64,000 bases of DNA from positions 9,898 to 73,897 of the forward strand of contig JABMOV010000139.1 of assembly GCA_013203145.1 (NCBI GenBank). The letters are read 5' to 3'. Source of the DNA: Fidelibacterota bacterium (GTDB lineage Bacteria; Fidelibacterota; Marinisomatia; Marinisomatales; JABMOV01). The notes below the pieces were generated by a model. It had not been told where the DNA came from, did not search any database, and saw only the letters and a program-made list of their open reading frames with translations. The translations under genes were made by a program, and so were the position numbers. Positions 12,321-41,637 of the stretch are shown piece by piece; the first letter of the stretch is position 1; the number at the start of each line of letters is the position of its first letter.

Positions 12321-12322
12321 CT

Positions 12323-13141: not shown

Positions 13142-13178
13142 TCCCTCACATATTATATAACTGCGTAAATTAGCGTGT

Positions 13179-14486: not shown

Positions 14487-14584
14487 CGTAATTTAGCTCT
14501 TAAGATATTTATTCTCTTCGAAGGTTTTTTCGTTTAGTACGCTATCCCCCAAAACGCATAAATTGAAACCACAAGGTTTGTAAT

Positions 14585-19293: not shown

Positions 19294-20363
19294 TGGAAGA
19301 AAAACTCCAACAGATAATCGATCGCTACACGAAGCTGGGTGTAAAAATGTCAGACCCTGACGTTATTTCTGATCATAATCGGTTACGAGAAACGGGTCAG
19401 GAATACAGTCGTCTGGAGCCCATTGTACACTGTGCACAAAAATATCTGGATATCCACCAACAAATCCTTGATGACAAAGAAATTCTTAATAGTGATGATG
19501 CTGAATTAAAAGAATTAGTCCAAGAAGAGCTCCCGGAATTAGAAGAAAAAAAAGAAGCTCTTGTGGAAAGGCTAAAAGTTTTAATGCTGCCAAAAGATCC
19601 AACCGACGACAAGAATATAATCGTCGAAATTCGAGCTGGGACAGGTGGCGATGAAGCAGGATTATTTGCTGCAGATTTATTTCGTATGTATACCCGTTTT
19701 GCAGAACGCTCAAACTGGAAATTCGAAGTTATGGATTCCAATTCCACCGGAATGGGCGGAATGAAAGAAATTGTTTTTTCCATCCATGGTACTGGCGTTT
19801 ATGGATTAATGAAATTTGAAAGTGGCGTTCATCGTGTGCAGCGTGTACCAAAAACAGAAACCAGCGGTCGTGTACATACTTCAGCCGCTACTGTTGCTGT
19901 TTTACCTGAAGCTGAAGAAGCTGATGTACAGGTTAATACAGGTGATCTAAAAATTGATACGTATCGCGCCAGTGGTTCCGGCGGTCAGCACGTTAATAAA
20001 ACCGAATCAGCTATTCGCATCACACATTTACCAACGGGTTTAGTTGTGACATGCCAGGATGAATCATCTCAGCATAAAAATCGCGCCGCAGCAATGAAAG
20101 TTTTACGATCACGATTATTAGCACAGGAGCAGGAACGTTTAGCCTCTGAGCGATCTGAAGTGAGAAAACTGCAGGTGGGTACAGGTGATCGATCCGCCAA
20201 AATTAGAACATACAATTTTTCTCAGGGTCGTATCACAGACCACAGAATTGGTCTGACGATGTACAATTTAGAAGCAGCACTTGATGGTGATTTAGCAGAA
20301 ATCATTGAGAGAATTCGATTGGCTGACCAGCAAGAACGACTTGCGGCTGTTGGCGAACAGTAA
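19293..20363 (+). CDS. prfA: Peptide chain release factor 1
   Basis: 356 aa with the GGQ motif ([14 protein letters not shown]) and an RF1-type PxT-region sequence. Confidence 0.97.
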
Positions 20364-20393
20364 GGCTAGGGGCAAGATATAAGTTTTAAGGTT
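20364..20393. repeat. Island left-boundary motif (inverted copy of 31008-31028 and 32816-32857)
   Basis: Begins at the base after the prfA stop. The reverse complement reads AACCTTAAAACTTATATCTTGCCCCTAGCC. Confidence 0.65.
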
Positions 20394-20507
20394 CACATTT
20401 CAATTATACGGATACTTCTTCTAAAAATTATCTTTCTTATACCAAAAATTATACAAAACACATCTGTTCTTATATCTGAGTAGTGTTTTATTTTTTCAAT
20501 TTACTAT

Positions 20508-20837
20508 CTAATGTCCACTGAGCGGTGTCCCAAAAATGCCGACTGCTAGTTCTGCCCAAATGAGCAGGAGGACAACCAGAAGAGCTACACAGACAGCAAT
20601 TTGGTACTTGATATTTTTTATCTTCCTTATTACAAGCTCACACATTAGACCAGTGCCGAGCAATAGAGCTCCCGCGACAACAAAATCGAACAAATTCCAA
20701 TTTACTTCATCTGTGAACTGCCCCGCTATTAATGGTATGAGCAATAAAATTGCTGAAGTGACCACGATTATGATAAGTCTTTTATTCTGCATAATTATAA
20801 ATGTTCTTATAAGTCTTACATTTCTGGTAACGGCCAT
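20508..20837 (-). CDS. Small membrane protein, unknown function
   Basis: 109-aa ORF with 3 hydrophobic helices. The start may be the internal Met (MQNKRL). Confidence 0.4.
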   Translation of the reverse strand: MAVTRNVRLIRTFIIMQNKRLIIIVVTSAILLLIPLIAGQFTDEVNWNLFDFVVAGALLLGTGLMCELVIRKIKNIKYQIAVCVALLVVLLLIWAELAVGIFGTPLSGH

Positions 20838-20893
20838 GGCTAAGGCGCGTTTTTAATGCGTCTTTAGCTTCTGTTATATGCTGGCTTTATTTT

Positions 20894-21295
20894 TTAATCT
20901 TCATTTGGTGCTACTAATTCAACTTTTATTCGGTCAGGATCTTCAAAAAAGAGCGCATAGTAATCCTTGCCTCCAGCGAACGGGTACTTATCATCATATA
21001 AAAGTTTGATGTTTTTTTCCTTTAATTTTTGCGTTATATCGTCCACCATTGTACGAGATTCGGCATGAAAGGCTATATGGTTTAGTCCTGTCCTCTTTCT
21101 ATGATATCCCATGTCACGGTATTTTTCTTCTGTCTGAACAAAGACTAAATACGTATCGAACAGTTTATAACTTATCCCTTCCTTCCATTTCTGGTATATG
21201 TCATATCCCAATTCGCTTAAAAACCAGCTCCAAAACTCAGTAGTTCTTCCCAAATCACTAACATATATCTCAATATGGTGTACTGTTCCTTTCAT
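20894..21295 (-). CDS. VOC-family (glyoxalase/bleomycin-resistance/dioxygenase fold) protein
   Basis: 133 aa with N-terminal HHIEIYVSDL and a later NHIAFH metal-ligand pattern. Confidence 0.8.
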   Translation of the reverse strand: MKGTVHHIEIYVSDLGRTTEFWSWFLSELGYDIYQKWKEGISYKLFDTYLVFVQTEEKYRDMGYHRKRTGLNHIAFHAESRTMVDDITQKLKEKNIKLLYDDKYPFAGGKDYYALFFEDPDRIKVELVAPNED

Positions 21296-21307
21296 TTTTT
21301 TGCTTGC

Positions 21308-21491
21308 ACCTAACTTCTCGCTAAACGTAATTATTGGGTTTAGCGGGTTTACTATTTAATACACAGTTACGTTTAAACAGGAATAACACCAATAACCTCC
21401 ATTTATTATAAATCTCAAAAACCGTCCTTTATAAGACTTCACTAATTTAAATCAAATTCCCGTCTCATAACCACATTTAACCGTATCAAAA
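21308..21491. repeat. Junction repeat copy A (attC-like element)
   Basis: Aligns with 30730-30915 over ~185 nt at roughly 85-90% identity by eye. It contains the hairpin CGCTAAAC-11 nt-GTTTAGCG. On the minus strand it ends in GTTAGGT (21314-21308), 12 nt upstream of the VOC start. Confidence 0.6.
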
Positions 21492-21837
21492 CTCATCTCA
21501 AAAGGCCAAAAGTGTGCTTTAATAGGCAATGCTTGTGTCTGGTTTAGTCGTATATAAAGGGGCGGGACATATCAATAAATCCTAACTTAACATCTAGTCC
21601 ATTGATTAGGGGCAGGGCACAAATTTCTAAATGAAACTGTGATTTCAATTTTTCTTACGGTGATTTATTGAATAGGAGTGCTCATGATAGAGGTTTCTTT
21701 TATATCTTCGGGCGTCATTGTGGAACCTAGATTATGAAAATGCTCAGAATTGACAATGAAGCAAATTAAAATGAATGTATTTGTTGTGGCTAAAACAATT
21801 TTAAGAATAAAACGAAAATAAGGGATAACCTGCTATT

Positions 21838-23082
21838 ATGATTGAAATCATTCAAGACTGGCTTGTAAATCAAGGAATCAATAATGCATTATCTGTTGGT
21901 TTGGTAAGAAGTGTTTTATTCATTCTGGTAATCGTTCTTGGGTTTATTGCCAATGGTGTAACCAAACGTATTATCCTGTCAGGATTATCCACTATTATAG
22001 CCCGTACTGAATTTAAATGGGACGACACCTTTCTAAAATGGAACGTCCTTAATAAGCTCTCCCACATGGCTCCGGTCATTGTGATTTATATTGCATCTCC
22101 ACTGGTGCTCACGGGGTATGACCGGTTGATAGCCTTGATTACAAGCGCCCTTTTCATTTACATGATAATTATTGTTATTCTGGTCATTGATTCTGCTCTC
22201 AACGCTTTCCTTGATATTTACAAAACGTATGAGATTGCTAGGGAAATCCCAATCAAAGGTTTGGTTCAGGTTTTAAAGATAGCAGTCTATTTCATAGGTG
22301 GAATCTTTGTTTTGTCCATTATTCTTAACAAAACGCCCATTTATCTGCTGAGTGGTCTTGGTGCATTAACTGCTGTACTCATGTTAATTTTCAAAGATAC
22401 AATCTTGGGATTTGTAGCAGGGATTCAACTTACAGCTAATAAAATGGTAGCATATGGCGACTGGATTGAAATGCCCCAATATGGGGCCGATGGTGACGTT
22501 CTGGAAGTTGCATTAACAACGGTTAAAATACAAAACTGGGATAAAACTATAACGACAATTCCCACTTCAGCTTTAATCAACGAATCATTTAAAAATTGGC
22601 GTGGTATGAGCGAATCGGGTGGACGGCGGATAAAAAGGGCAATCTACCTTGATATAAGCAGTATCAGATTATGCACAGAGGAAATGCTGGAGAATTTTCT
22701 CAAAATTCAATATATCTCAGAATATATTGAGAAGCAGAAACGAGCGGTTGCTGAATACAATGTCACCAGTGGGATTGATGATTCAAGCCTTGTAAATGGA
22801 CGGAGACTTACTAATATCGGGACCTTTCGGGCCTATATTTTTGCCTATCTAAAAAACCATCCTATGATTAACCAGGATATGACTTTTCTTATCCGTCAGT
22901 TAGCGCCCACGAAAGATGGTTTGCCCATTGAGATTTATGTCTTCTGTAAGGACAAAGAATGGATTAACTATGAAAAGATCCAAGCCGACATTTTTGATCA
23001 TCTTCTGGCTATTGTTCCTGAATTTGGTTTAAAAGTTTTTCAAAATCCTACAGGAAGCGATTTTAATGAATTTACTAGATAG
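21838..23082 (+). CDS. MscS-family mechanosensitive channel
   Basis: 414 aa with N-terminal TMs and an MscS beta-domain (GDWIEMPQYGADGDVLEVALTTVKIQNWDKTITTIPTSAL). Confidence 0.85.
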   Translation: MIEIIQDWLVNQGINNALSVGLVRSVLFILVIVLGFIANGVTKRIILSGLSTIIARTEFKWDDTFLKWNVLNKLSHMAPVIVIYIASPLVLTGYDRLIALITSALFIYMIIIVILVIDSALNAFLDIYKTYEIAREIPIKGLVQVLKIAVYFIGGIFVLSIILNKTPIYLLSGLGALTAVLMLIFKDTILGFVAGIQLTANKMVAYGDWIEMPQYGADGDVLEVALTTVKIQNWDKTITTIPTSALINESFKNWRGMSESGGRRIKRAIYLDISSIRLCTEEMLENFLKIQYISEYIEKQKRAVAEYNVTSGIDDSSLVNGRRLTNIGTFRAYIFAYLKNHPMINQDMTFLIRQLAPTKDGLPIEIYVFCKDKEWINYEKIQADIFDHLLAIVPEFGLKVFQNPTGSDFNEFTR

Positions 23083-23098
23083 ACATCGCAATTTGTTT

Positions 23099-24496
23099 TT
23101 ATAGTACATGACTCTTGATTACCATCAGTTTTTCTCTCGTCATTTCGTGCATGGAATATTGAATTCCTCCCATACCAATTCCTGAAGTATCTCGTCCACC
23201 AAAAGGCATCCAATCAACACGGAAAGCAGTATGATCGTTCACCATAACAGCTGTTGCGTTAAGCTTTTTAACACATTCTAGAGCAACATCAATATTTTTT
23301 GTATAAACAGCAGCTTGAAAATGAACATCCAAACTATTGGCAATTTTAATGGCTTCATCACGATTTGAATAAGAATAGATACAAACTACCGGTCCAAAAA
23401 TTTCTAGAGTTGAGACCTTAGCATTTGCCGGTGGATTTAAAAGAACAGTTGGTTGATAACAGGTGTCAGAAATTCTTTTCCCGCCACACAATAATTTCGC
23501 CCCACCTTCTATGGCTTCATTTACCCACTTTTCAACTCTATCAACTTCCCTAGGAAAGATTAGCGGGCCCACTTCTGTTTTTTCATCCATTGGATCACCA
23601 ACTATTAAATTATTTGCCATTGCAGATAATTCATTGGCAACGTCATCACATATACTTTCATGAGCAAAAACGCGCTGGACAGACACACAAACTTGTCCGG
23701 CATGATAAAAACCACCTTTTGAAAGTGCCGGCATCATTTCTTTGAAATCGGCATCTTTTTCTACAATTACAGGAGCAGCTCCACCATGTTCTAGGGCGCA
23801 TCTTGTGCCGGGAGCTAATTTGGATTTCAAATACCAACCTACTTGCGGTGAACCGATGAAGGAAAAATAATTAACCCTCTTATCAGTAACCAAAAGCTCT
23901 CCCGCATCTCTATTGCAGATTACAACCTGGCACCAGCCATCAGGCAACCCTGCTTCCTTCAGGATATTTACTAAAGCCAAACAAGATAGGGGAGTAGCTA
24001 AAGCTGGTTTTATAATAACAGGGCATCCTGCTGCCACAGCGGTAACCACTTGGTGTACAATCAAATTAAGTGGATGATTAAATGCGCTGATAGATGTTAC
24101 TACGCCAATGGGTTCTCTTGTTGTAAAGGCAATTCTTCCTTCGGAAGCCTTGGTTAATCCCATTGGGATTTGTTCCCCCTTGAGTTGACCAATGTGTTCA
24201 GCGGCTATTTTTATTCCATTAATCGCTCTCAATACTTCCACTTTCGAATCGGTATAAGGTTTTCCGCCTTCTTGAGCTGCCGTATTGGTTAGCTCTTCAA
24301 TTCGCGTTTTCATTATTTCCGCGGTTTGTTCTAATATTGCGATTCGTTCATGTGCCGGAATCCACGTTGATTGGTCTAGAAAAAGGTTATATGCCTTTGT
24401 AAGTGCTTTATCTACTTCTTCTTTCCCAACTAATGGAATTTCCTTAATCAGCTTTAAATCATAGGGTGAGTTTACTTTTAACATTGGTTTTGTCAT
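23099..24496 (-). CDS. NAD(P)-dependent aldehyde dehydrogenase
   Basis: 465 aa with ALEHGG (the catalytic Glu region) and catalytic Cys context GQVCVSVQR. Confidence 0.88.
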   Translation of the reverse strand: MTKPMLKVNSPYDLKLIKEIPLVGKEEVDKALTKAYNLFLDQSTWIPAHERIAILEQTAEIMKTRIEELTNTAAQEGGKPYTDSKVEVLRAINGIKIAAEHIGQLKGEQIPMGLTKASEGRIAFTTREPIGVVTSISAFNHPLNLIVHQVVTAVAAGCPVIIKPALATPLSCLALVNILKEAGLPDGWCQVVICNRDAGELLVTDKRVNYFSFIGSPQVGWYLKSKLAPGTRCALEHGGAAPVIVEKDADFKEMMPALSKGGFYHAGQVCVSVQRVFAHESICDDVANELSAMANNLIVGDPMDEKTEVGPLIFPREVDRVEKWVNEAIEGGAKLLCGGKRISDTCYQPTVLLNPPANAKVSTLEIFGPVVCIYSYSNRDEAIKIANSLDVHFQAAVYTKNIDVALECVKKLNATAVMVNDHTAFRVDWMPFGGRDTSGIGMGGIQYSMHEMTREKLMVIKSHVL

Positions 24497-24518
24497 CTTA
24501 ATTCGTTCTCTCTTTATA

Positions 24519-26159
24519 TCAAAGGATACATGTTTTTTCTTTTAACAAAATATTCAATATTGAATGATTTAATGAATAATCTACTGCCAGATCAATTACA
24601 TGAACGCCATCTTTATGTAAACATTTTGTAAGAATTTTTCTAAAATCCTCATCACTTTTCGGTCTGTAACCCTTTGCACCATAGCTTTTTGCGTATTTAA
24701 CAAAATCTGGATTTTTGTAGTCCAACCCAAAGTTATCGAATCCCATTCCTTCTTGTTTCCATTTTATCATTCCATAGGCGCTATCATTCAAAATAATAAC
24801 AACTAAATTTAATCCTAATCGTACAGCCGTTTCTAATTCCTGAGAATTCATCATGAATCCACCATCACCACAAACAGAAATCACTTTTTTATCCGGATTA
24901 ATCAGTTTAGCTAATATTGCAGAAGGCAATCCTGCCCCCATTGTTGCCAAGGCATTATCTAATAATAACGTATTGTGCTGATAACATTTATAGTTTCTAG
25001 CAAACCAAATCTTATAAACACCATTATCCAAAGTAACAATACCATCATCAGTTAATTCTTCTCTGATAATGTGTACTAATCTTTGTGGTAGAATAGGAAA
25101 GCGGATATCTTTGGAGTATTTGCTCAGATGAAGTTCAACCTCATCTTTGACTCTTTGGAAATAGGACAAATCCCAGTTACCTGTTTCACGAATACTTGAA
25201 CCAATTAGTTCAATGGAAGTTGCGATATCGCCAATTACATTTAATTGAGGAAAATAAACTTCATCTACTTCGGCTGGGAAAAAGTTAATATGTATGACCT
25301 TTGTCCCTCCTTCTTCCATAAAAAATGGAGGTTTTTCAATTACATCATGTCCCACGTTTATTATTAAATCGGCTCTACTAATTGCGCAATGCAAAAAATC
25401 ATCTTTGGATAAAGCTGCTGTACCTAAAAATTTAGGGTGTCGTTCATCCACAACTCCTTTACCCATTTGTGTATCAAAAAAAGGAATTCCTGTTTTATCA
25501 ATAAATATAGATAAAGCTTTTTCTGTTCTTTTTCGGTTTGCACCAGCTCCAATTAACAATAAGGGCATTTTTGCCTGTTCAATCATTTTCACCGCATTCT
25601 GAATAGCTAATGTGTCTGCATCGGGTCTGCGATGTCCAACAACTTCAAATATTCTCTCGGTACATTCTTCAGCGGCAATGTCCTCTGGTAATTCTAAATG
25701 TACTGCTCCAGGTCTTTCTTCCATTGCTAAACGGAACGCCTCTCGAACCATTGAAGGGATATTATTTCCATTTACAATTTGTCGTGTGTATTTGGTTATT
25801 GGACGAAGTAGGTCAACTATATCAACAATCTGAAATCGACCTTGTTTTGATTTTTTAATCGGTTTTTGCCCGGTAATCATCATCATAGGCATTGCTCCCA
25901 ATTGCGCGTAGGCTGCCGGAGTAGTAAAGTTTGTAGCACCTGGCCCAAGCGTAGATAAACATACACCCGGTTTTCCCGTCAAACGACCATACGTAGCAGC
26001 CATGAAACCTGCTCCTTGTTCGTGTCGGGTAAGAACTAATTTAATTGTGGAGTGTCTAAGTGAATTCAAAAAATCAAGATTCTCTTCGCCTGGAATTCCA
26101 AAGATATATTCAACACCTTCGTTTTCGAGTGCTTTAATAAATAAATCTGATGCTTTCAT
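24519..26159 (-). CDS. ThDP-dependent acetolactate synthase-like enzyme (catabolic AlsS type)
   Basis: 546 aa with N-terminal GVEYIFGIPGEE and the ThDP-binding GDGGFMMNSQELET...N motif. Confidence 0.85.
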   Translation of the reverse strand: MKASDLFIKALENEGVEYIFGIPGEENLDFLNSLRHSTIKLVLTRHEQGAGFMAATYGRLTGKPGVCLSTLGPGATNFTTPAAYAQLGAMPMMMITGQKPIKKSKQGRFQIVDIVDLLRPITKYTRQIVNGNNIPSMVREAFRLAMEERPGAVHLELPEDIAAEECTERIFEVVGHRRPDADTLAIQNAVKMIEQAKMPLLLIGAGANRKRTEKALSIFIDKTGIPFFDTQMGKGVVDERHPKFLGTAALSKDDFLHCAISRADLIINVGHDVIEKPPFFMEEGGTKVIHINFFPAEVDEVYFPQLNVIGDIATSIELIGSSIRETGNWDLSYFQRVKDEVELHLSKYSKDIRFPILPQRLVHIIREELTDDGIVTLDNGVYKIWFARNYKCYQHNTLLLDNALATMGAGLPSAILAKLINPDKKVISVCGDGGFMMNSQELETAVRLGLNLVVIILNDSAYGMIKWKQEGMGFDNFGLDYKNPDFVKYAKSYGAKGYRPKSDEDFRKILTKCLHKDGVHVIDLAVDYSLNHSILNILLKEKTCIL

Positions 26160-26204
26160 ATTTCCCTTAAGTTTTTTTTAAAGTTAGCCTTTTATTGATT
26201 TAAT

Positions 26205-26305
26205 ACCCAACGTCCTTAATAACTGCAATTATTGGGTACTCTTTAATGCAAAGTTGCGTTTTAACCGGAACAACACATAGCCTTTGTTAGCGTTTCGTTG
26301 TTGTC
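26205..26305. repeat. Junction repeat copy D (short attC-like element)
   Basis: Shares AATTATTGGGTA...AATGCAAAGTTGCGTTTTAACCGGAACAACAC with copies A-C. On the minus strand it ends in GTTGGGT (26211-26205) upstream of the ALS gene and starts with ACAACAACGAAACGCTAAC just after the 195-aa ORF stop. Confidence 0.5.
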
Positions 26306-26317
26306 TTTCTCTTAAAT

Positions 26318-26905
26318 TCATTTTTTGATATTGTCCTTGTTTGGTGATACTAAAGGAATAACTTTTCTTACGATAAATATTATTCCAGTTCTAACATATA
26401 GATAAAGTACAACTCCTATTAAAGCTAATATACTACCCACTCCTGTGGGAAGAACTACACCAAATGTAAATGTCATGCCAATGACAAATCCTAAGAAACA
26501 TTCTGCTCGATAAATTGGAAAGAACAGAGCCAATAGAAAAAGTCCATACATCATATAGCCTGAAAGATTTGAATAACCAAGAGTGAAAAACACCGAAAGT
26601 AGTACTCCAAATGATAAAGCAAAGAGAAACCTGTAAGTAGATTTCATTGGAAAATTTAATGAGTTTGACTTATTACCATTGTTACTAATTAGTCGTTTTT
26701 GTATGCGAAAAGTTAGAAACAATGTAAGTAAAGGAAGTAAGAGACCTCCCCACCAATTAGAAATTTTAGGCAAGTCCTCCTGTTGTAGTATATGGTGGCT
26801 TGGTACACCACCATGGTAATGAGTCCATATTAATAGTGACCATATGCCAATTGCTACTATTCCCGTAAAATATAGACTTCTTTTTAAAAACGTTTTTTCA
26901 GTCAT
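26318..26905 (-). CDS. Polytopic membrane protein, unknown function (single-gene cassette)
   Basis: 195 aa, about 5-6 TM, with no recognisable motif. Confidence 0.5.
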   Translation of the reverse strand: MTEKTFLKRSLYFTGIVAIGIWSLLIWTHYHGGVPSHHILQQEDLPKISNWWGGLLLPLLTLFLTFRIQKRLISNNGNKSNSLNFPMKSTYRFLFALSFGVLLSVFFTLGYSNLSGYMMYGLFLLALFFPIYRAECFLGFVIGMTFTFGVVLPTGVGSILALIGVVLYLYVRTGIIFIVRKVIPLVSPNKDNIKK

Positions 26906-27008
26906 AATAATTTGATTTTAAGCGGTACGTTGTTTTTTCTTTCGTTGTTGTCTGCTGCCCAATTTTTATTTTGCTTGTTACAAACCGTTATTTTTCATCT
27001 AAAGCATT
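26906..27008. repeat. Junction spacer F (degenerate attC-like element)
   Basis: The minus strand reads AAATAACGG...AATTGGGCAG...GACAACAACGAAAG. It shares the ATAACG/ATTGGG half with copy C and the ACAACGAAA box with copies D and E. No clear GTT end is present. Confidence 0.3.
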
Positions 27009-27458
27009 TTACTTTTTGTATAAAGTTCTTACCTGTGGCAGTAAGGCAATAATAATAATGGCAATAGCAAAAAACATATAAAATGTATGTAACCAATGTA
27101 CGGCATGAAGAAACACCATTTGGATCTGTATCCAACTAATGAGTGTAAAAGCAATATAAATACTGTAAGTCCACGACCAGTGCATATCTTTAAATAAATT
27201 GATTTGCTCGGCTAGCTTGGATTCTGTTTTTTTTAGTAACGCAATTATCAGCAACAGGGGAATAAGCCCAAGAACTGAGAATAAAATAACCCCAGGTATA
27301 AAAAAACTACTAAAAGGAGATTTTTCTAACATAGATAAAGGCATTCCAATCAACTCTCCTGTAGGAGAAATTATCAATGCTCCACCTCCTCCAATTGCTC
27401 CCAATCCGAGGAATCCTAATAAAATCAAAAAGATATTTCGCGTTGTTTTTATTTTCAT
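27009..27458 (-). CDS. Four-TM membrane protein, unknown function (single-gene cassette)
   Basis: 149 aa with the Gly-rich first helix GLGAIGGGGALI. Confidence 0.5.
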   Translation of the reverse strand: MKIKTTRNIFLILLGFLGLGAIGGGGALIISPTGELIGMPLSMLEKSPFSSFFIPGVILFSVLGLIPLLLIIALLKKTESKLAEQINLFKDMHWSWTYSIYIAFTLISWIQIQMVFLHAVHWLHTFYMFFAIAIIIIALLPQVRTLYKK

Positions 27459-27503
27459 AACCTTTTCTTCGTTTTTTGGAATTGTCTCATGTGTTTAAAT
27501 GGT

Positions 27504-27713
27504 TTATAACGTCCCGCTAAACGTAATTATTGGGCTTATCGGGCAATACACAGTTATGTTTTAACCGGAAGAAGACCCACATACCTCCATTTATTATACA
27601 TATAATAAACCGTCCTCTTCATATATCTCAAAAATACGTCTTAAAACTCTAAGTCTCAATATGTTGAGATATGAGACACCCGTCCCATAATCAAAATCGA
27701 TTAGACGTTATGC
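27504..27713. repeat. Junction repeat copy C (best attC-like fold)
   Basis: The ends pair: ATAACGTC (27506-27513) with GACGTTAT (27704-27711). An inner pair, AATTATTGGG (27525-27534) with CCCATAAT (27684-27691), has one bulged T. The first ~100 nt are homologous to copies A and B. It contains module 2 (27625-27677). Confidence 0.6.
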
Positions 27714-27720
27714 TGTAGTT

Positions 27721-27966
27721 CTAAAGATCCTTTTTCATCTGATCAAATTCCAATTTGGTAATTTCACCTTTAGCATATCGCTTCTTGAGAATATCCAAAG
27801 CTGTTTCCGATTCTGTGCTATCGCGATGATTCCGGTCTGAATCACCCATCCATGGTGGTCTAAAGCCTCCGCGCCTTGACATTAGGAAAAAGAAAACCAT
27901 CATCGCTAGACACATTATAACGGGGAACATCCACCATCCACCCGACCACATATGTTCATTTCCCAT
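27721..27966 (-). CDS. SHOCT-domain small membrane protein
   Basis: 81 aa with an N-terminal TM and a C-terminal SHOCT motif (LDILKKRYAKGEITKLEFDQMKKDL). Confidence 0.75.
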   Translation of the reverse strand: MGNEHMWSGGWWMFPVIMCLAMMVFFFLMSRRGGFRPPWMGDSDRNHRDSTESETALDILKKRYAKGEITKLEFDQMKKDL

Positions 27967-28037
27967 TTGTATTACTCCTTCATTTTATCCAGTCAGATAT
28001 TACTGATGTGAATAAAATTTGTTAAGTATGGTGTTGT

Positions 28038-28302
28038 GCTTAACGTACTCAATAAATGGTGTTTTGTAAAGAATTAATCCGTTTCATCATCCCTCACCCA
28101 TTGATTGGATCACATTTTGTCCCACAAACCATCCTTTTTAAAACATCTCAAAACTACGTCTTAAAACTTTAATTCTCAATATGTTGAGATATGAGACTCT
28201 CGGGAGCTGTAATAGGCTAAAGTGACGAATAATTCGTGAAAAAATGACATACGAGGCAGTGAAAGGTTTATGGTTTGCTAACGTTTGTTGGCGTTTCGTT
28301 GT
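28038..28302. repeat. Junction repeat copy E (attC-like element downstream of Thoeris)
   Basis: Module 2 at 28145-28197 matches 27625-27677 at 50/53 nt. The minus strand begins ACAACGAAACGCCAAC directly after the thsB stop and ends GTTAAGC (28044-28038). Confidence 0.55.
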
Positions 28303-28872
28303 TTATCCTACCCAATCAGCAAAATTGTTATAACCATCATTATCAATCCAATCATAAACCGAATATAATGATGATAATCTAAAGATTTTATTTCTTTTGA
28401 ATTCTTCAACTTCCTTAACCGTCCAACCATCTAAATCTGTATATTTTGTCCACTTTCCTTGAATGAAATTATGGAGACTTAGTTTCCCCCCTGTTTTGTC
28501 AAAGGAGTATCCTAAATAATAAAATGGATTATTTCCTTTATTTTTAGTTTTACCATCTTTGCCTTTTATGCTATTAATGTGTATTCCCAATAAATCATTG
28601 CCCTTTTCTAGGCTTTTCATTATTTCATAATCAACCCACCTGCGGTTAAATGTATCAGAACCTATAAGTACACAAGTAACAGAAGTATTTTTAAGTTCTC
28701 CATTAATAAGTCTTTTCAGCGCTAAAGCACTAGTTTTCTCTGCTGTTTCCCAAATTGAAGCATCAAAATACCCAGCACTCTTGTCCTTTGTTAATTTATG
28801 CTTTCTTACAACATTTGCTCTAAATTCAATTACATCTTTGTAATGAAAACTAAAAAATACTCGTTTAGCCAT
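28303..28872 (-). CDS. thsB: Thoeris ThsB, TIR-like (DUF1863-type) protein
   Basis: 189 aa with the N-terminal VFFSFHYKDV strand typical of TIR-like DUF1863. Its start lies 1 nt after the thsA stop. Confidence 0.8.
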   Translation of the reverse strand: MAKRVFFSFHYKDVIEFRANVVRKHKLTKDKSAGYFDASIWETAEKTSALALKRLINGELKNTSVTCVLIGSDTFNRRWVDYEIMKSLEKGNDLLGIHINSIKGKDGKTKNKGNNPFYYLGYSFDKTGGKLSLHNFIQGKWTKYTDLDGWTVKEVEEFKRNKIFRLSSLYSVYDWIDNDGYNNFADWVG

Positions 28873-28873
28873 T

Positions 28874-30310
28874 TTAAATATGATTTTGCAATAGGTTGAT
28901 TGCTTTAATTAAATTATTGATAATGGTTGATTCGTCAATATTATCTTGACCTAATGATATTATGGTGTCTTTCAACACCGGATTGTCAGGGTAGTATTCT
29001 TCATATTTATCAATAACCTTTTTCCATAATTCTTTAGATGCATAGCCAGTACATCCTATTGGTATTACTTTTAGTCCCAATTCCACTGCAATTTCAAATT
29101 CTTTTATTAATCCATCGGACAAGACAACTTTATTTTCAACTAATTTGTTTCCAAAAAAGAATATAGCAATACCAGCTTCTCCAAGCATTATGTGTCTATA
29201 ATGATTCCATGATTTTTCCCGTTCTACTGGGTCAGTAATATTCTGAGGAAAAGGTCTTAATATTAGATAATCATCTAATTGCCCTTTTTGGTTGTTGTAA
29301 ACATTTGTAAGAGTTCCATTTATCACAGAACTTCCAATGCCAAGACCAAAACCAGAGATTATCTTATAATTCTTCTCAGCTAACTTGGATGAAAAATTGA
29401 AAATCAAATTTTCAGCACCAAATTTCCCTAAATAGCCGTATTCATGTGCAGCACCTGAAATAAAAATATTTCGTCTACGCAGTTTTGTTTGAATTAATAG
29501 AAGAACTTCGGTAATCTCATTATAATCATCTATCATTAAAGCTTGAATCCCGTATCTTTTCAAATCCTTTATACGGTGTTCCTGCTTAATTTTATCATAC
29601 AGGTATTCATCACATATTTTATAGCTGTCCTCTGAAATTGTTTTGAAAAAACAATAATGGTCAGGAGTATGATTACCAAGAAGAATTCTAATTCGACTTA
29701 ATATATATTCAAGATTTGGGTCTTCAAAACTGAAACCAATAAACAAAAATGTTTTTGATACTAAATCACCTTGTAACGCAGTCGTAAATAACTGACGCTT
29801 TTCATTATAGTTTTCATAATCGTCTTTTGTCAAAACAGCATCATGACTCAGAGTGATATCACCATGCATTTTATAGATTACAGCTTCTCTACGAGGTTTA
29901 CTTATTGCTAAATTTTCAGTACATCTTTTGACATCAGTAATTTTACCAAACTTTTCTATAGTTTTTTCAATTAAATCATCATAATTGGTTGTCCAGTAAG
30001 TTTTAATAGGTAAGGAAGCCAGAATCTGATGATTTATGCTTTCTTTTACATCCTTTGTGAATTGCTCAATTAACTGGTCATTAATACTTCCTCTGCTTCC
30101 CTTCTCATTCTCATAGTATTGAGCAACTGCAATTAAGTCTGTTTCCTTATCGACATTGAGGTTTAATTCCTCTGCCATTTCTCGAAGCAATTCCTTCCAA
30201 TTAACCAACCCAGATGAAACTGACATACCAGCTCCAGCGAATATCGCTGCGTTTTCTGCATTAATTGATTTGATATATTTGTCAACGAATTGTGTTAGTT
30301 GTCTTTTCAT
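28874..30310 (-). CDS. thsA: Thoeris ThsA, SIR2 NADase domain plus C-terminal SLOG sensor domain
   Basis: 478 aa. SIR2_2-type motifs are present (AAIFAGAGMS, WTTNYDDLIE, YKMHGD). The C-terminal half is SLOG-like and Gly-rich (FISGAAHEYG, ISGFGLGIGSSVING). Confidence 0.88.
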   Translation of the reverse strand: MKRQLTQFVDKYIKSINAENAAIFAGAGMSVSSGLVNWKELLREMAEELNLNVDKETDLIAVAQYYENEKGSRGSINDQLIEQFTKDVKESINHQILASLPIKTYWTTNYDDLIEKTIEKFGKITDVKRCTENLAISKPRREAVIYKMHGDITLSHDAVLTKDDYENYNEKRQLFTTALQGDLVSKTFLFIGFSFEDPNLEYILSRIRILLGNHTPDHYCFFKTISEDSYKICDEYLYDKIKQEHRIKDLKRYGIQALMIDDYNEITEVLLLIQTKLRRRNIFISGAAHEYGYLGKFGAENLIFNFSSKLAEKNYKIISGFGLGIGSSVINGTLTNVYNNQKGQLDDYLILRPFPQNITDPVEREKSWNHYRHIMLGEAGIAIFFFGNKLVENKVVLSDGLIKEFEIAVELGLKVIPIGCTGYASKELWKKVIDKYEEYYPDNPVLKDTIISLGQDNIDESTIINNLIKAINLLQNHI

Positions 30311-30320
30311 TTTATCTTAT

Positions 30321-30692
30321 TTATGACAGCACAGTTTTTAAATTATCCCATGTCCAGTCGTACAACGCTCCAGCATTTTCAACTCTTGTTGGGTTTGTTC
30401 CCTGTGGTTTTATTTGAACTGTTTTTATATAATTATTTCTAGCCATTTTAACTTCCTTCTTGACACCACTAGCTCTATAAGTGGATGTGCCAGCTATTAC
30501 AACCACAATATCAGACCTTTTTATTTTAGCAAGAGCTTTATCCTCCCAGTCTTTTTCTGGTACAGCTTCTTTTAAAGACCAATCCGAAATTTCAAATGGT
30601 GAATCGGGTAATTTTGCTTGTCCAGCAAGTAAGTTTTTCAGACTTAAATCATTATCAAAATCAAAGCTTATAAATACTCTTTTTTTACTCAT
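30321..30692 (-). CDS. thsB: Second, divergent Thoeris ThsB-like TIR-like protein
   Basis: 123 aa with RVFISFDFDND...DIVVVIAG...GVKKEV, the pattern of short TIR-like/DUF1863 proteins. It lies 10 nt upstream of thsA. Confidence 0.7.
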   Translation of the reverse strand: MSKKRVFISFDFDNDLSLKNLLAGQAKLPDSPFEISDWSLKEAVPEKDWEDKALAKIKRSDIVVVIAGTSTYRASGVKKEVKMARNNYIKTVQIKPQGTNPTRVENAGALYDWTWDNLKTVLS

Positions 30693-30729
30693 AATATTTC
30701 AATTTAGGTGCATGTGTCTTTACAATGAA

Positions 30730-30915
30730 CGCCAACTTTCCGCTAAACGTAAATTATTAGGTTTAGCGGGTTTATTCTTTAATACAAAGTTACGTTTTAA
30801 CCGGAATAACACCCATATACCTCCATTTATTATAAATTTCAAAAACCATCCCTTTTAAGACTTTACCAATTTAAATCAAAAACTCGTCTCATAACCACAT
30901 TTAACTGTATCAAAA
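30730..30915. repeat. Junction repeat copy B (attC-like element upstream of Thoeris)
   Basis: See copy A. On the minus strand it ends in GTTGGCG (30736-30730), 37 nt upstream of the thsB' start. Confidence 0.6.
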
Positions 30916-31007
30916 TCAATGTCTCAAAATGCAAATATAAGTTTTGAGAAATATTAAAAAAAGAGATGAAAGAAAGATTAACCTCCGGCATCCCATATCA
31001 CTTCATT

Positions 31008-31028
31008 CTTAAAACTTAATATCCTGCC
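31008..31028. repeat. Internal copy of the island-boundary motif
   Basis: CTTAAAACTTAATATCCTGCC matches the reverse complement of 20371-20390 (CTTAAAACTTATATCTTGCC) and 32819-32850. Confidence 0.55.
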
Positions 31029-31091
31029 ACTTGATGAGCCGTTAGCAACAAACTTTTTCGAAATTTCATCAAAATAGTTATTGTATTACAT

Positions 31092-31109
31092 TTACTGCCA
31101 TAGCAGTAA
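31092..31109. promoter_or_regulatory. Putative HipB operator 1
   Basis: TTACTGC-CATA-GCAGTAA, with perfect 7-bp arms. Confidence 0.55.
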
Positions 31110-31162
31110 TACAAAGCAAACAATTCTATTTGTCTATCAAATCTATCTTTTGCGATCAATTA

Positions 31163-31180
31163 ATACCGCCATAGCGGTAA
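31163..31180. promoter_or_regulatory. Putative HipB operator 2
   Basis: ATACCGC-CATA-GCGGTAA, with 6-bp perfect arms, 71 bp from operator 1. Confidence 0.55.
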
Positions 31181-31235
31181 TTATTTCATGTTTTAATATA
31201 AAGAACTTGTTTTTAAAATTAATATCAATCTATAT

Positions 31236-31253
31236 TTACCGCCATGTCAGTAA
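31236..31253. promoter_or_regulatory. Putative HipB operator 3 (overlaps the hipB start codon)
   Basis: TTACCGC-CATG-TCAGTAA, an imperfect copy of the same 18-mer, 73 bp from operator 2. The ATG at 31244 lies in its spacer. Confidence 0.5.
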
Positions 31254-31486
31254 AGAATGAGTTACACAACGTGATTTTATATCACAGAAAAAAAGCAAAA
31301 TTAGGTCGAAATGAGTTGGCAGAATTAGCAGGTGTTGGTAAAACAGTAATATACGATTTAGAAAAAGGTAAAAAGACTGTTAAGTGGTCAACAATAATGA
31401 CAATTCTTGAAGCGTTGAATATTGAGATAACGTTTCAAAGCCCATTAATGGAAGAATATGAGAAAAGCAAGAATAAGAACCCATAA
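31244..31486 (+). CDS. hipB: XRE-family HTH protein, HipB of a tripartite HipBST module
   Basis: 80 aa with the HTH LGRNELAELAGVGKTVIYDLEKGKKTV. Confidence 0.8.
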   Translation: MSVKNELHNVILYHRKKAKLGRNELAELAGVGKTVIYDLEKGKKTVKWSTIMTILEALNIEITFQSPLMEEYEKSKNKNP

Positions 31487-31778
31487 TACTAAAGCCGGGA
31501 TTCTAACCGAGTATAGTAAAACACATTATGTTTTTCAATATGATATTGGTTATGAAGGTCCTCCCATATCTCTTACAATGCCGGTACGAGATAATCCTTA
31601 TGAATTTGACTCTTTCCCGCCCTTTTTTGATGGCTTACTCCCTGAAGGAATACAATTAGAAGGTTTGCTGAAATATAATAAGATAGATAAATCGGATTAC
31701 TTCAAACAATTATTGGCAACGGGGCAGGATTTAGTAGGAGCGGTTACTGTAGAAGAAATCGACACCTTTGATGAATAG
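31458..31778 (+). CDS. hipS: HipS: stand-alone HipA N-terminal-subdomain protein
   Basis: 106 aa matching the HipA N-terminal domain pattern (AGILTE...YVFQYD..., PPFFDGLLPEG). It overlaps hipB by 29 nt and hipT by 11 nt. Confidence 0.78.
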   Translation: MRKARIRTHNTKAGILTEYSKTHYVFQYDIGYEGPPISLTMPVRDNPYEFDSFPPFFDGLLPEGIQLEGLLKYNKIDKSDYFKQLLATGQDLVGAVTVEEIDTFDE

Positions 31779-32697
31779 ATGCCCAATTACATATGAACCA
31801 TGCAAAGGCAAATACAGTAAAACCGGTCTGGCAAAGTTATCGCCTCGCTTAACAGAGTTAGTCGATTTACCATTTACTGCACAAGAGCAAAGACGTGAAG
31901 CGGCCTCAAGAGCAACAAAAACGTCTATCCAGGGAGTTCAGCCTAAACTAAGCGCAAGGCTCTCTGTGAAAAGTTCATCATTGGAAATAGTCGATATTAA
32001 AGGAACGTTTATCCTTAAGCCACAAAGTGACATTTTTAGAGAGGTTCCAGAGAACGAGGATGTTACTATGAAGATGGCTAAAATCCTTGGGATTGATGTT
32101 CCCTTAACCGGGTTAGTTTTCTCAAAGGATGGAAGCTTAAGCTATTTCATAAAGCGATTTGACAGGTACGGTACTAATAAGAAAAAACATTTAGAAGATT
32201 TTGCTCAGTTGACAAATAATACGAGAGAAACAAAATACAATTGGTCTATGGAAAAATTAATTCCCGTAATTGATTCTAATTGTACTTTCCCATTAATTGA
32301 AAAGAGAAAATTGTTCAGAAGGATGCTTTTTTGCTTTCTTATTGGAAACGAGGATATGCATTTAAAGAATTTTAGTTTAATAATGCACGACAATATAATA
32401 GAACTCAGCCCGGCATATGACCTGCTTAACTCTACGATTTCAATGGAAAGGGCAACAGAAGAATTTGCTTTACCACTTGCAGGGAAAAAAAGAAAGATAA
32501 CAAGGAAAGACCTAGTAACATATTTTGGAATGGATTGGTTACGGTTAACAGGAAAAACAATAGAATCTGAAATCCAAAATATAAAAGACAAAAAATCAGA
32601 CCTGGAGAGCTTAATACATATTTCTTTCCTAACTAAAGAAATGAAAGAAAAGTATCTTGAATTAATGTCAAATAGATATGAAAGATTAATGGAATAA
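31768..32697 (+). CDS. hipT: HipT: HipA-family Ser/Thr kinase toxin lacking the N-terminal subdomain
   Basis: 309 aa with the Gly-rich/P-loop TSIQGVQPKLS and catalytic loop GNEDMHLKNFSL, followed by SPAYDLLNS. Confidence 0.85.
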   Translation: MMNRCPITYEPCKGKYSKTGLAKLSPRLTELVDLPFTAQEQRREAASRATKTSIQGVQPKLSARLSVKSSSLEIVDIKGTFILKPQSDIFREVPENEDVTMKMAKILGIDVPLTGLVFSKDGSLSYFIKRFDRYGTNKKKHLEDFAQLTNNTRETKYNWSMEKLIPVIDSNCTFPLIEKRKLFRRMLFCFLIGNEDMHLKNFSLIMHDNIIELSPAYDLLNSTISMERATEEFALPLAGKKRKITRKDLVTYFGMDWLRLTGKTIESEIQNIKDKKSDLESLIHISFLTKEMKEKYLELMSNRYERLME

Positions 32698-32815
32698 AGT
32701 CAGCAGCTTATAGTGTATAAACGAAAGGCGTGGTGAATCATTAATAACTCCCTGCGCAATTAATTTCTTTTAATTCATTCCTCGATAACATCTACCCCTT
32801 TTATCTTTTATAGTA

Positions 32816-32857
32816 AACCTTAAAACTTCAGCCTTCAATTACTATCTTCCCCTAAAT
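32816..32857. repeat. Island right-boundary motif
   Basis: AACCTTAAAACTT-(14-nt insert)-TATCTTCCCCTAAAT, directly upstream of prmC. It is an inverted match to 20364-20393 and a direct match to 31008-31028. Confidence 0.6.
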
Positions 32858-33745
32858 TTGGTGCATTCTATGAGCACTGAACCGAAAACCTGGCGAATTA
32901 TTGATATGCTGAAATGGGCGGAATCCTATTTTGGCGAACATGGTTTTCCCCATCCGCGTCGCGATATTGAAGTTTTGTTACAGGATTTACTACACTGCTC
33001 CCGTGTTGATTTATACTTACGCTTTGATGAGCCGTTGGATCGGCAACAATTAGACAAACTGCGATCATGGATAAAGCGCAGAACAAAAAAAGAGCCCATT
33101 CAATATATTACCGGGAAAACAGAGTTCTATGGACTGGAAATGGAAGTCAACGATTCTGTATTAATTCCGCGCCCCGAGACTGAACGGCTTGTGGATGTTG
33201 CCATTCATACGCTGGGGCAGAATGGATCTTCAAAAATTTTGGATATAGGAACAGGTTCTGGTTGTATTGCCATCGCACTGGCTCATGAAATGCCACAGGC
33301 GCATATTACAGCGGTTGATATTCATGATGCTGCTCTGGATTTGGCGAATACAAATAGCAAACGCCATAACGTGAACAATATTGAGTTTAGACAAATGGAT
33401 TTTCTTAAAGAAATTCCAGGTGGAAATTTTGATATGATTGTATGTAATCCACCCTATGTGCCGGAAATTGAGATGGAGTCGCTCATGCCCGATGTTAGAG
33501 ATTATGAGCCCCGCACTGCTCTCACAGATGGCATAGATGGTTTAACATTCTACCATCGCCTGGCCCAAACAGGTCCTGACATGTTGAAACATCGCGGTTG
33601 GATGATTATGGAAGTCGGTTTAGAAGACCATCCTGAAAACGCCAAGGCAATTTTTCAGAATTATCCCTATGGTTCATTGGAGCTCATATCAGATTATAAC
33701 GGGGATCCGCGAGTATTAAAGGTGCGACTTACGCAAGATGAATAA
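32858..33745 (+). CDS. prmC: Release-factor glutamine N5-methyltransferase PrmC/HemK
   Basis: Carries the SAM motif DIGTGSGCIAIA and catalytic NPPY (VCNPPYV). The track start is a TTG. The ATG at 32870 (MSTEPKTW) is the likelier start. Confidence 0.92.
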   Translation: MVHSMSTEPKTWRIIDMLKWAESYFGEHGFPHPRRDIEVLLQDLLHCSRVDLYLRFDEPLDRQQLDKLRSWIKRRTKKEPIQYITGKTEFYGLEMEVNDSVLIPRPETERLVDVAIHTLGQNGSSKILDIGTGSGCIAIALAHEMPQAHITAVDIHDAALDLANTNSKRHNVNNIEFRQMDFLKEIPGGNFDMIVCNPPYVPEIEMESLMPDVRDYEPRTALTDGIDGLTFYHRLAQTGPDMLKHRGWMIMEVGLEDHPENAKAIFQNYPYGSLELISDYNGDPRVLKVRLTQDE

Positions 33746-34577
33746 ATTTATTGCAGGGATTCGTTTACTGCGCCCGCTGAACTGTCTGACTGGCGCTGTG
33801 GTTGTATTTGTTGCAGCAGCAATTACACATTCACTGGATCACATATCACTATTGCTTACTGCCATGGCCGTTGTCATGTTTTACAATGGTGGCGCCAATG
33901 CAATTAACGATTATTATGATTACGAAATTGATAAAATCAATCGTCCTGATCGTCCATTGAGTTCAGGAATGCTCACAAAAAAAACAGGATTACTCATAGC
34001 CATTTCTTTATTTATTCTGGGAACACTTTTGGCTATTCAATTAAACACAATTGCGATGTTGATTGCCATTTTGTTAGCCATGCCAATTTTAATATTTTAT
34101 ACGATAGGTTTAAAAAATAGACCTTTGATAGGAAATATGGCAGTGGCGTTAATCCTGGGATTGGTTTTCATCTTTGCCGGTGCAGTCTTTGAATCCATAG
34201 CCATCATGATCGTTCCGGCCGTTTTAGCTTTTTTGCTCACATTTCTTAGAGAAGTCATAAAAGACGTAGAAGATATGGAAGGCGATAATAAAATGGGGCT
34301 ACGTACATTCCCCATCGTTGCAGGGACGACGGCAACCTACCGCATTGTTCGTTGGTGGGCATTCTTCACCGGATTAATTATGTTATTACCAGTCTGGTAT
34401 GAATATTACACCATTCAGTATTTATGGATTGTCTTGATCGGTATTAATCTTCCCTTACTGTACATTATAACAAAATTTTCATTTGAGCCGGATATGAAAA
34501 CGGTTTCATTATCAGCGAAACTCCTTAAAATCAGTACCATTGCAGGTGTAATTGCAGTTTATTTTGGTTCTGTTTAA
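33738..34577 (+). CDS. UbiA-family prenyltransferase
   Basis: 279 aa, polytopic, with the Asp-rich motif NDYYDYEIDKINRPDRPL and a second motif KDVEDMEGD. It overlaps prmC by 8 nt. Confidence 0.85.
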   Translation: MNKFIAGIRLLRPLNCLTGAVVVFVAAAITHSLDHISLLLTAMAVVMFYNGGANAINDYYDYEIDKINRPDRPLSSGMLTKKTGLLIAISLFILGTLLAIQLNTIAMLIAILLAMPILIFYTIGLKNRPLIGNMAVALILGLVFIFAGAVFESIAIMIVPAVLAFLLTFLREVIKDVEDMEGDNKMGLRTFPIVAGTTATYRIVRWWAFFTGLIMLLPVWYEYYTIQYLWIVLIGINLPLLYIITKFSFEPDMKTVSLSAKLLKISTIAGVIAVYFGSV

Positions 34578-34653
34578 CAGGGAAGACAACCAAGCGATGA
34601 AATCTCAATCAATTATAGAAACGTTGTAAATTGAACCTCACTTTGGAGTAATT

Positions 34654-41600: not shown

Positions 41601-41637
41601 TAAATATGAATTATATTTCATAATAAAATGCAATGCG

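Follow-up and report, generated by a model that had tools for sequence, protein, structure and literature searches.

Genes between prfA and prmC

We analyzed a 64,000-nucleotide (64-kb) stretch of DNA from a Fidelibacterota bacterium (contig JABMOV010000139.1, positions 9,898 to 73,897; hereafter the window) and focused on the interval that separates prfA from prmC. In comparisons we use the lineage name Marinimicrobia/Neomarinimicrobiota (SAR406). The two genes lie 12.5 kb apart, and the interval spans positions 20364-32857. Gene calls and strands were checked with Pfam, NCBIfam and PADLOC, and the named genes and strands that an earlier note had listed for the interval were all confirmed. 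On the left side, rpmE, DUF1385 and PrfA are all encoded on the + strand, up to position 20363 (Pfam, NCBIfam, PADLOC). The left flanking gene is prfA (peptide chain release factor 1, 19293-20363, +; Pfam PCRF 1e-74, RF-1 2e-41), and the order AT-rpmE-DUF1385-prfA is syntenic in 80 relatives. The right flanking gene is prmC (release-factor glutamine methyltransferase, 32858-33745, +), which scored 287 bits against TIGR03534 (cut-off 199). Relatives place the prmC start at TTG 32858 or GTG 32861, and public gene calls use ATG 32870; the PrmC N-terminus VHS... aligns with GTGCAT in a relative (L006).

We grouped the cargo into six modules and compared it with that of a conspecific strain, FLOH (a 749-kb contig, FLOH01000018.1, recovered by a metagenome scan with the repeat core described below). 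The left edge (20364-20507) contains TAGGGGCA (20367-20374) and the left arm of a 13-mer inverted repeat, AAGTTTTAAGGTT (20381-20393). Module 1 (20508-21295, - strand) consists of a VOC/glyoxalase-family gene (20894-21295; Pfam Glyoxalase 3e-8) and of memA, which encodes a small membrane protein (20508-20789 or -20837); it is present in both strains. Next comes an MscS-family mechanosensitive channel gene (21838-23082, +; Pfam MS_channel_2nd 4e-17), convergent with the ALDH gene of Module 2. Module 2 (23099-26214, -) carries an ALS-like thiamine pyrophosphate enzyme (24519-26159) and an ALDH (23099-24496) together with their native 5' untranslated region (NCBIfam NF006187, 881 bits). Module 3 (26318-27458, -) encodes two multi-pass membrane proteins of 195 and 149 aa (26318-26905 and 27009-27458) that are conserved in both strains and found no match in Pfam, PADLOC or NCBIfam. 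Module 4 (27721-27966, -) is a SHOCT-domain small membrane protein (Pfam SHOCT 2e-8) that strain FLOH lacks.

Module 5 (28284-30736, -), also missing from strain FLOH, is a type I Thoeris system composed of a second TIR protein (30321-30692), a SIR2-SLOG ThsA (28874-30310) and ThsB (28303-28872). A ThsA with SIR2 and SLOG/STALD domains thus lies beside at least one TIR-domain ThsB. The domains were recognized in Pfam (SIR2_2 6e-29, STALD 1e-70; ThsB_TIR 4e-21 and 4e-8) and by PADLOC (ThsA1 2e-197, ThsB1 8e-55), and the proteins matched PDB structures (ThsA versus 6LHX 9e-130; ThsB versus 6LHY/9B7D 6e-74). The ThsA residues aligned with N112 and H152 are conserved, as is the context of the ThsB catalytic-site glutamate, YEIMKS. 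ThsA homologues at 86-88% identity exist. In its SIR2 and SLOG/STALD architecture, the ThsA of the window is the same as that of the type I Thoeris from Bacillus cereus MSX-D12; the window also has a second TIR gene, and such a gene is common in Thoeris loci. Unlike the MSX-D12 system, the one in the window is a cassette in a Marinimicrobia island, and its function is predicted. In Thoeris, phage is sensed by the TIR proteins, whose cyclic ADP-ribose signal then activates the SIR2 NADase of ThsA, and the infected cell dies. From family membership and the conserved catalytic positions, we infer that the system of the window would act against phages in this way, through cyclic ADP-ribose and NAD+ depletion.

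Module 6 (31244-32697, +) is a HipBST toxin-antitoxin system laid out on three overlapping open reading frames (ORFs): the helix-turn-helix (HTH) protein HipB (31244-31486), followed by HipS (31458-31778) and the kinase HipT (31768-32697). The Pfam matches were HTH_3, Couple_hipA (7e-24) and HipA_C (4e-44), and HipT matched the Legionella HipT structures (PDB 7VKB/8EZR) at 3e-101. The order of an HTH protein, a HipA-N-like HipS (106 aa) and a HipA-C kinase (309 aa) is that of the HipBST systems of Legionella pneumophila and E. coli O127; unlike those, the window system is known from its domains and gene order, and its operators are predicted. Three near-identical 18-nt palindromes, TTACYGCCATRKCRGTAA, about 70 nt apart upstream of hipB on the + strand (31093-31110, 31163-31180 and 31236-31253; sequence reading and repeat search), the last of which overlaps the hipB start, are probably the HipB operators. 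In HipBST, the kinase toxin is restrained by HipS and HipB, and such a module can stabilize the island. Transcription of this + strand operon, the rightmost in the island, probably also continues into prmC. The right edge (32698-32869) follows, with the right arm AACCTTAAAACTT (32816-32828) and CCCCTAAATTTG (32846-32857), the latter conserved upstream of prmC.

No tRNA genes are present. The island has a GC content of 35.0%, versus 39.1% outside, and tetranucleotide usage deviates with z of 3.6-5.4 at 26-33 kb only (membrane proteins, SHOCT, Thoeris, HipBST). The compositional comparison with the flanks that the earlier note had proposed gave a mixed picture, as the part at 21-26 kb (MscS-ALDH-ALS) is backbone-like in tetranucleotides.

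Outside the island, a 322-aa protein (15878-16846) between rho and an aminotransferase gene gave Cas6b_N/Cas6b_C Pfam matches. Relatives encode this Cas6b-like protein in the same place (L099, and L005 with 86% identity); it had no NCBIfam match, and no CRISPR array or other cas genes were in view near it.

The junction in relatives and in a second strain

We compared 80 species-level relatives, fetched around prfA, and added closer ones via PrmC homologues. prfA and prmC are adjacent in 76 of the 80, in the order AT-rpmE-(DUF1385)-prfA-prmC-UbiA, so that the adjacency presumed by the earlier note is indeed the rule. We inspected 13 nearer relatives, and in at least 10 of them the prfA stop directly abuts the prmC start (TAA-GTG, TAA-TTG, TAA/TGA-ATG). 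The left end of the island, at the very base that follows the prfA stop, is thus meaningful, because this point is the ancestral stop/start junction.

The search for an empty junction in related genomes yielded a near-empty one. The sister species (L099/L100; PrfA 82% and PrmC 81% identical) has the arrangement prfA-262 nt-prmC. One of the two sister loci, L100 (GCA_011682625.1, JAACEI010000083.1), is binned as Simkaniaceae; its gene order and sequence are Marinimicrobia-like, and the binning is probably an error. Another species (L101) has a non-prfA ORF upstream of prmC. A third species (L005/L102) is rearranged, prfA facing LpxK and rplI preceding prmC. A more distant species pair from a second Marinimicrobia lineage (L075 and L082) is collinear until the prfA stop and unrelated beyond it. 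After the stop, L082 encodes a Schlafen group 3 helicase (DUF2075-like) and CopA (11068-13068), and L075 a YidD-like protein and a trypsin-like peptidase (11076-15537). The breaks at the prfA stop in several relatives show that the prfA 3' end is a recurrent breakpoint, and the subclade of the window species had already loosened the prfA-prmC pair.

Different cargo at the same site, which the earlier note had also proposed to look for, was found in strain FLOH. The three pieces fetched from FLOH01000018.1 are contiguous and match positions 18725-34853 of the window at 95-98% DNA identity. FLOH lacks window positions 27617-30767, which hold SHOCT and the whole of Thoeris. At ~21588-21617, FLOH has 4 kb more than the window; this DNA encodes two beta-lactamase-family hydrolases and an LCM-type methyltransferase (Pfam) and includes a repeat copy termed RB. 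At this site the window has a ~30-nt filler (21588-21617; window/FLOH comparison) that holds a second TAGGGGCA (21607-21614). FLOH also misses a 99-nt spacer between VOC and memA (20793-20891). These module differences between conspecific strains indicate that the island is in flux. Separately, a 37-nt stretch upstream of memA (window positions 20797-20833) is 92% identical to positions 5277-5313 of L086, which comprise the 5' untranslated region and start of a beta-lactamase-family gene in the extra module of FLOH; this match is a trace of past shuffling between modules.

Could the island have been mis-joined into the locus during assembly? Two JGI contigs end within ALDH, and several short contigs break at repeats, as a chimera might. 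However, both arrangements, both outer junctions and the internal order recur in independent assemblies (JGI L001/L002/L098, Logan L003/L097, ENA L087, and FLOH01000018.1, which spans the site). This agreement excludes a chimera for all practical purposes.

The strain data bear equally on a lineage-specific chromosomal rearrangement, which would have moved native genes between prfA and prmC when the pair was already uncoupled in the subclade. Such a history would fit the core genes found at both broken ends in L005/L102 (prfA|LpxK and rplI|prmC), the ~260-nt spacer that the subclade ancestor already had and the backbone-like composition of MscS-ALDH-ALS. Yet module content varies between conspecific strains, the composition deviates strongly over 26-33 kb, and Thoeris and ALS-ALDH recur elsewhere at 77-85% DNA identity, although the core protein PrfA is only 82% identical in the sister species. 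We consider a rearrangement quite improbable.

We then examined the edges of the island, where the earlier note had described a ~30-nt motif in inverted orientation. A perfect 13-nt inverted repeat is indeed there, AAGTTTTAAGGTT at 20381-20393 and its complement at 32816-32828, and these are the sole two copies in 64 kb. The motif is not continuous over ~30 nt, however: a second block, TAGGGG(C)AAGATA, comes only past a 14-nt insertion. Both arms are TA-flanked, and the core block of the edge repeat was matched by 11 of 1000 shuffles. The earlier note had counted this motif toward the signature of a horizontally acquired, recombination-built locus. This part of its reasoning is not supported, and the motif is not the mark of a mobile element: the arms are partly native spacer in species without the island. 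In the sister species L099, which has no island, the left inner block, GTTTTAAGGT, directly follows the prfA stop. The right outer block, CCCCTAAATTG, lies ~14 nt before the prmC ATG (CCCCTAAATTG-N14-ATG) in L099, L101 and L102, all of which lack the island. Strain FLOH does not conserve the outer block and reads TAGGCGCAAGATTT there. With two blocks native in island-free species and the outer block unconserved in FLOH, the edge arms are largely remnants of an ancestral ~260-nt spacer into which the island grew, and not transposon ends; the whole left edge (20364-20507) is taken as such a remnant. Rfam found nothing in the L099 spacer.

The alternative is a transposon or miniature inverted-repeat transposable element, inserted at a TA in the prfA-prmC spacer, whose terminal inverted repeats would be TAGGGGCAAGATA...AAGGTT and its complement. 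The edge repeat (13 nt perfect plus 10/11), with each arm TA-flanked, would suit such an element, and so would TAGGGGCA, which has just two copies in 64 kb, one at the left edge (20367-20374) and one at the strain-variable junction (21607-21614). On the other hand, besides the native blocks and the outer block that FLOH does not conserve, no transposase is present and no other copy of an arm was found in 1.5 Mb of related loci. Moreover, TA is self-complementary, so that the flanking TA is indistinguishable from an extension of the repeat and gives no unambiguous target-site duplication. A transposon origin is therefore very unlikely. We also rejected the idea that the insertion had split a hairpin of ancestral origin: relatives have none at the junction.

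Repeats, the Thoeris cassette and the ALS-ALDH module

In a repeat search of the 64 kb, no repeat >30 nt with a copy in the island had another copy outside it. Each minus-strand operon is headed by a copy of one repeat family, with four to five copies in the window, all in one orientation: R4 heads Thoeris, the degenerate R5 heads SHOCT, R3 the membrane pair, R2 ALS-ALDH and R1 VOC, and RB heads the methyltransferase of FLOH. The repeat core measures 74-85 nt (GTGTTMTTCCGGTTAAAACRYAACTKTG...CCCAATAATTACGTTTAGCGGGACGTT) and the element ~75-215 nt including a distal module; it ends in ...GACGTT|RGG, and similarity between copies ceases a few bases past GTT. Most copies carry the distal module, ~110 nt long and of one of two variants, with TTAWAA-N18-TATAAT-like boxes. 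Sigma-70 and terminator scans were not above shuffles, and the boxes are a suggestion only.

The copies were delimited on the - strand by repeat search and alignment, and R1 to R4 also by a covariance model. R1 (21308-21503; 102 bits) has its core at 21308-21391 and a distal module b, and ends in ...GAGAAGTT|AGGT, 12 nt before the VOC start. R2 (26205-26302; core 26205-26278) is without most of the 3' hairpin arm (TTACGTTTAGCGG) and carries a box, ACAACGAAACGCTAACAAAGGCTATGTG, directly after the memB stop. R3 (27504-27709) combines a core (27504-27578), which has a 9-nt deletion and a mutated 5' hairpin arm, with a distal module c (27618-27682) and an 8-nt box, ATAACGTC (~27700-27707), complementary to the terminal GACGTTAT. 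R4 (30730-30915; core 30730-30814) retains an intact palindrome, CCGCTAAAC/GTTTAGCGG, and a distal module b, and ends in ...GCGGAAAG|TTGGCG. R5 is an ORF-less segment (28041-28276) with a copy of module c (28138-28202) that ends in GTACGTT|AAGC before SHOCT.

We searched for the repeat elsewhere. Across a metagenome collection, a 22-mer of the core occurred in this species only, with four copies on the 749-kb FLOH contig, all inside the island; eight extra 22-mer matches in the metagenome scan were dismissed as chance, as their flanks are dissimilar. The covariance model of the core found no further copy in 593 kb of fetched loci except a diverged one upstream of ALS in L106. The core had 0 matches in viral contigs, and Rfam gave nothing at the repeats (window at the gathering threshold; island at E up to 5). 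No comparable repeat punctuation was seen in L075, L082 or L005. The repeat family is the sole element of the island without a known counterpart. A Bacteroidota-type TAnnTTTG promoter motif, considered for CCCCTAAATTTG and the repeat core, was discarded, as it is not enriched intergenically (13/76 copies).

The repeats also mark where the strains differ. The crossover of the SHOCT-Thoeris indel falls inside repeats: the FLOH repeat is R4-like distally and R3-like in the core, and the switch in this hybrid lies within a shared block, GGAYGGTTT...TATAATAAATGGAGG. A crossover within direct repeats is the pattern expected of homologous recombination between them. Of the two ends of the 4-kb FLOH module, one coincides exactly with the distal edge of the module's own repeat and the other lies beside a GTWAGG box. 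Repeat paralogues are 64-90% identical and orthologues between strains 92-95%; since the paralogues are the more diverged, the array predates the strain split.

The Thoeris module has a counterpart in another array. Its DNA is 81.7% identical to that of three other loci (L111-L113), from exactly the G of GTT in GTTGGCGTT (30736) to ACAACGAAACGCYAACAA past the ThsB stop (28284). We observed that L111 (ENA ERZ27262921 k141_116510, 1-12209) is a defence array whose units are separated by ~131-nt attC-like hairpins (1381-1511 and 8022-8152). Its three-gene Thoeris is accompanied by Gabija (OLD-TOPRIM plus UvrD), an EcoRI-like methylase and GmrSD. The attC-like element after this Thoeris is 131 nt long and folds at -25.5 kcal/mol (z -4.3); it consists of an R'' box (ACGCTAAC), a 5-nt spacer, a 22-nt stem that is 95% complementary, a 65-nt loop, a spacer and an R' box (ACGTTAGC). 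Another copy of this element is found 6.6 kb upstream, with 77% identity. The 12 kb of L111 hold no integrase.

Direct comparison with the intact 131-nt L111 site identified a collapsed attC at the end of the Thoeris module of the window (28277-28302, -; ACAACGAAACGCCAACAA|ACGTTAGC), in which R'' and R' are kept and the internal hairpin is deleted. The 5' GTTGGCGTT and the 3' AACGCCAAC of the module are perfectly complementary. R'' can be recognized in the ACGCYAAC boxes that directly follow the stops of ThsB and memB; an R'' assigned inside the repeat core (ACGYAAC) was unsupported and was abandoned. The R2 box ACAACGAAACGCTAACAAAGGCTATGTG is identical at 27/28 positions to the first 28 nt of the attC-like site after Thoeris in L111 (R''-spacer-L'' start). 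By these comparisons, the Thoeris module is an integron-type gene cassette that is also present in an attC array elsewhere. It is the only module of the island found to have a 5' G|TT, its own 3' attC and a copy in another array. Another copy of Thoeris was seen in L114 (1590-4333), where ThsB is shortened to 108 aa and IS21-type transposase genes (rve/Mu-transposase C-terminal domain plus IstB) come after it.

The ALS-ALDH module also recurs in other genomes. At the protein level, ALS shows 84-92% identity among Bacteroidota, KSB1 and Marinimicrobia. The ALS-ALDH DNA is 84.9% identical over 3116 nt to L106-L110, in a different chromosomal context, and 77.5% identical (coding sequence only) to the copy of Maribacter sp. 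4G9 (L115, MDGL01000035.1, 4001-7082), which lies inside a mercury-resistance cluster (MerT, MerP, MerA, a CsoR-like regulator and a P-type ATPase). These matches show that ALS-ALDH is mobile and suggest that it is a widely transferred module. The diverged repeat core in L106 lies directly upstream of ALS; thus core and ALS are linked elsewhere, too.

A proposed island of cassettes

Together, our results suggest that the prfA|prmC junction of one Marinimicrobia species holds an additive genomic island that varies between strains and is composed, as a mosaic, of six or more modules of horizontal origin; we put the probability of this reading at about 0.7. The site is empty or nearly so in relatives, and close relatives hold different cargo at the same site. 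The proposal of the earlier note that the locus is a horizontally acquired, recombination-built hotspot of defence and addiction genes is in this respect supported, by the adjacency rule, the near-empty sister site, the change of cargo between strains, the other lineages that break at the prfA stop and the two modules that recur at 82-85% DNA identity. We propose that integron-like recombination would have captured the cargo, acting at the terminal GTT of each repeat, with the recombining enzyme supplied in trans or since lost. The direct repeats may today act mainly as portable homology, and probably as promoters, and modules would be lost, swapped or re-acquired through homologous recombination between them.

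Several observations weigh against this reading of a mosaic assembled by cassette capture. Cassette status is demonstrated for one module only, Thoeris, and the 21-26 kb part is backbone-like in composition. The SHOCT-Thoeris indel between strains lies not at GTT but within the repeat, and the 4-kb indel of FLOH has one end only at a repeat boundary. No integrase or other recombinase was found in the 64 kb, by Pfam on ~40 flanking ORFs, except a REP (repetitive extragenic palindromic)-associated tyrosine transposase (RAYT). A scan for a simple attC grammar (R''/L''/L'/R') gave 20 matches in the window versus 19-40 in shuffles and picked up only R1. Whole repeat elements do not fold as one hairpin (z -0.3, -2.3), and neither of the two candidate stems, which are 86-88% paired, shows a compensatory change. 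Two repeat paralogues, R2 and R3, are without all or part of a hairpin arm. RNAalifold recovered the central palindrome only, with a positive covariation term. The repeats of the island itself are not canonical attC sites.

The RAYT gene (36870-37391) lies 4 kb right of the island and scored 76.9 bits against NF047646 (cut-off 80). Its REP-like hairpins, GGGGCGATTCATGAATCGCCC, occur at 37144-37183 (inside the annotated ORF), 41567-41606 and 42447-42486. A link between RAYT and the island was rejected: the REP hairpins do not resemble the island palindrome. With IntI1 and XerD as queries, tblastn found nothing below E 1.7 in the window and nothing in any fetched locus.

The same observations bear on whether the island is a working integron array without a local integrase (CALIN), in which the repeats would be unusual long attC sites, IntI would be encoded elsewhere and cassettes would still move by G|TT recombination. 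The repeats are co-oriented, lie between modules and end in GTTRRRY-like boxes (GTTAGGT, GTTGGGT, GTTAGGC). The Thoeris cassette starts at G|TT, has R''/R' remnants and carries the perfectly complementary GTTGGCGTT/AACGCCAAC; R3 is flanked by the complementary ATAACGTC/GACGTTAT. A toxin-antitoxin system at the array end is typical of chromosomal integrons. All this fits a CALIN. However, the attC grammar was not above chance, the repeats show no global hairpin and no covariation of the stems, and elements of up to ~215 nt exceed the usual attC sizes (57-141 nt). Furthermore, the sites at which the strains differ do not fall at G|TT, another genome has a copy of the core that accompanies ALS as its 5' leader, several modules are multi-gene and no intI was found in any fetched locus. 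A functioning CALIN is thus unlikely, though we would give it some weight.

We also entertained a more speculative reading, in which the repeats are cassette-docking sites of a new kind, made of a promoter-bearing leader, a hairpin, a 5-nt spacer and a GTT crossover, each serving as a private attI for a recombinase encoded elsewhere. If this doubtful proposal were true, the array would be a row of independently promoted docking sites that capture and express integron-type cassettes, Thoeris having been one such capture, not one attI plus many attC.

The island of the window thus resembles CALINs and sedentary chromosomal integrons in its co-oriented modules, its direct repeats ending in GTT and its end-of-array toxin-antitoxin system, as well as in the strain-variable cassettes, the lack of a nearby integrase and the Thoeris that it shares with an attC-bearing array. 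It differs from them in that its repeats fail attC structure and grammar, reach ~215 nt and sit as 5' leaders with promoter-like boxes; several modules are multi-gene, strain differences fall inside repeats and the sole recognizable attC is collapsed. It also shares with defence islands, core-genome hotspots and marine flexible islands variable cargo between core genes at a site that is empty in relatives. Like defence islands and marine flexible islands, it mixes defence, toxin-antitoxin and niche genes, and other lineages hold different cargo at the site. Unlike those islands, it has an internal repeat punctuation not found outside the island in this genome, and unlike hotspots at tRNA genes or intergenic gaps, it splits a pair of genes that normally abut and are probably translationally coupled. 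All in all, it is a horizontally built cassette island and defence hotspot whose capture mechanism is partly resolved: real but fairly ordinary, a tidy example and not a surprise.

To our knowledge, the mobile genetic repertoire of the Marinimicrobia (SAR406), abundant uncultured ocean bacteria, is almost undescribed, and a literature search on Marinimicrobia plus integron returned nothing relevant. The prfA|prmC junction provides a concrete, re-findable hotspot where defence and niche genes turn over between strains. Integron-type cassettes with a complete Thoeris circulate between an attC array elsewhere and Marinimicrobia. The island also offers a small, well-defined repeat family that may be a promoter, a recombination site or both. 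Finally, an abutting, probably translationally coupled pair of essential genes can be split if the island supplies an upstream region for the distal gene.

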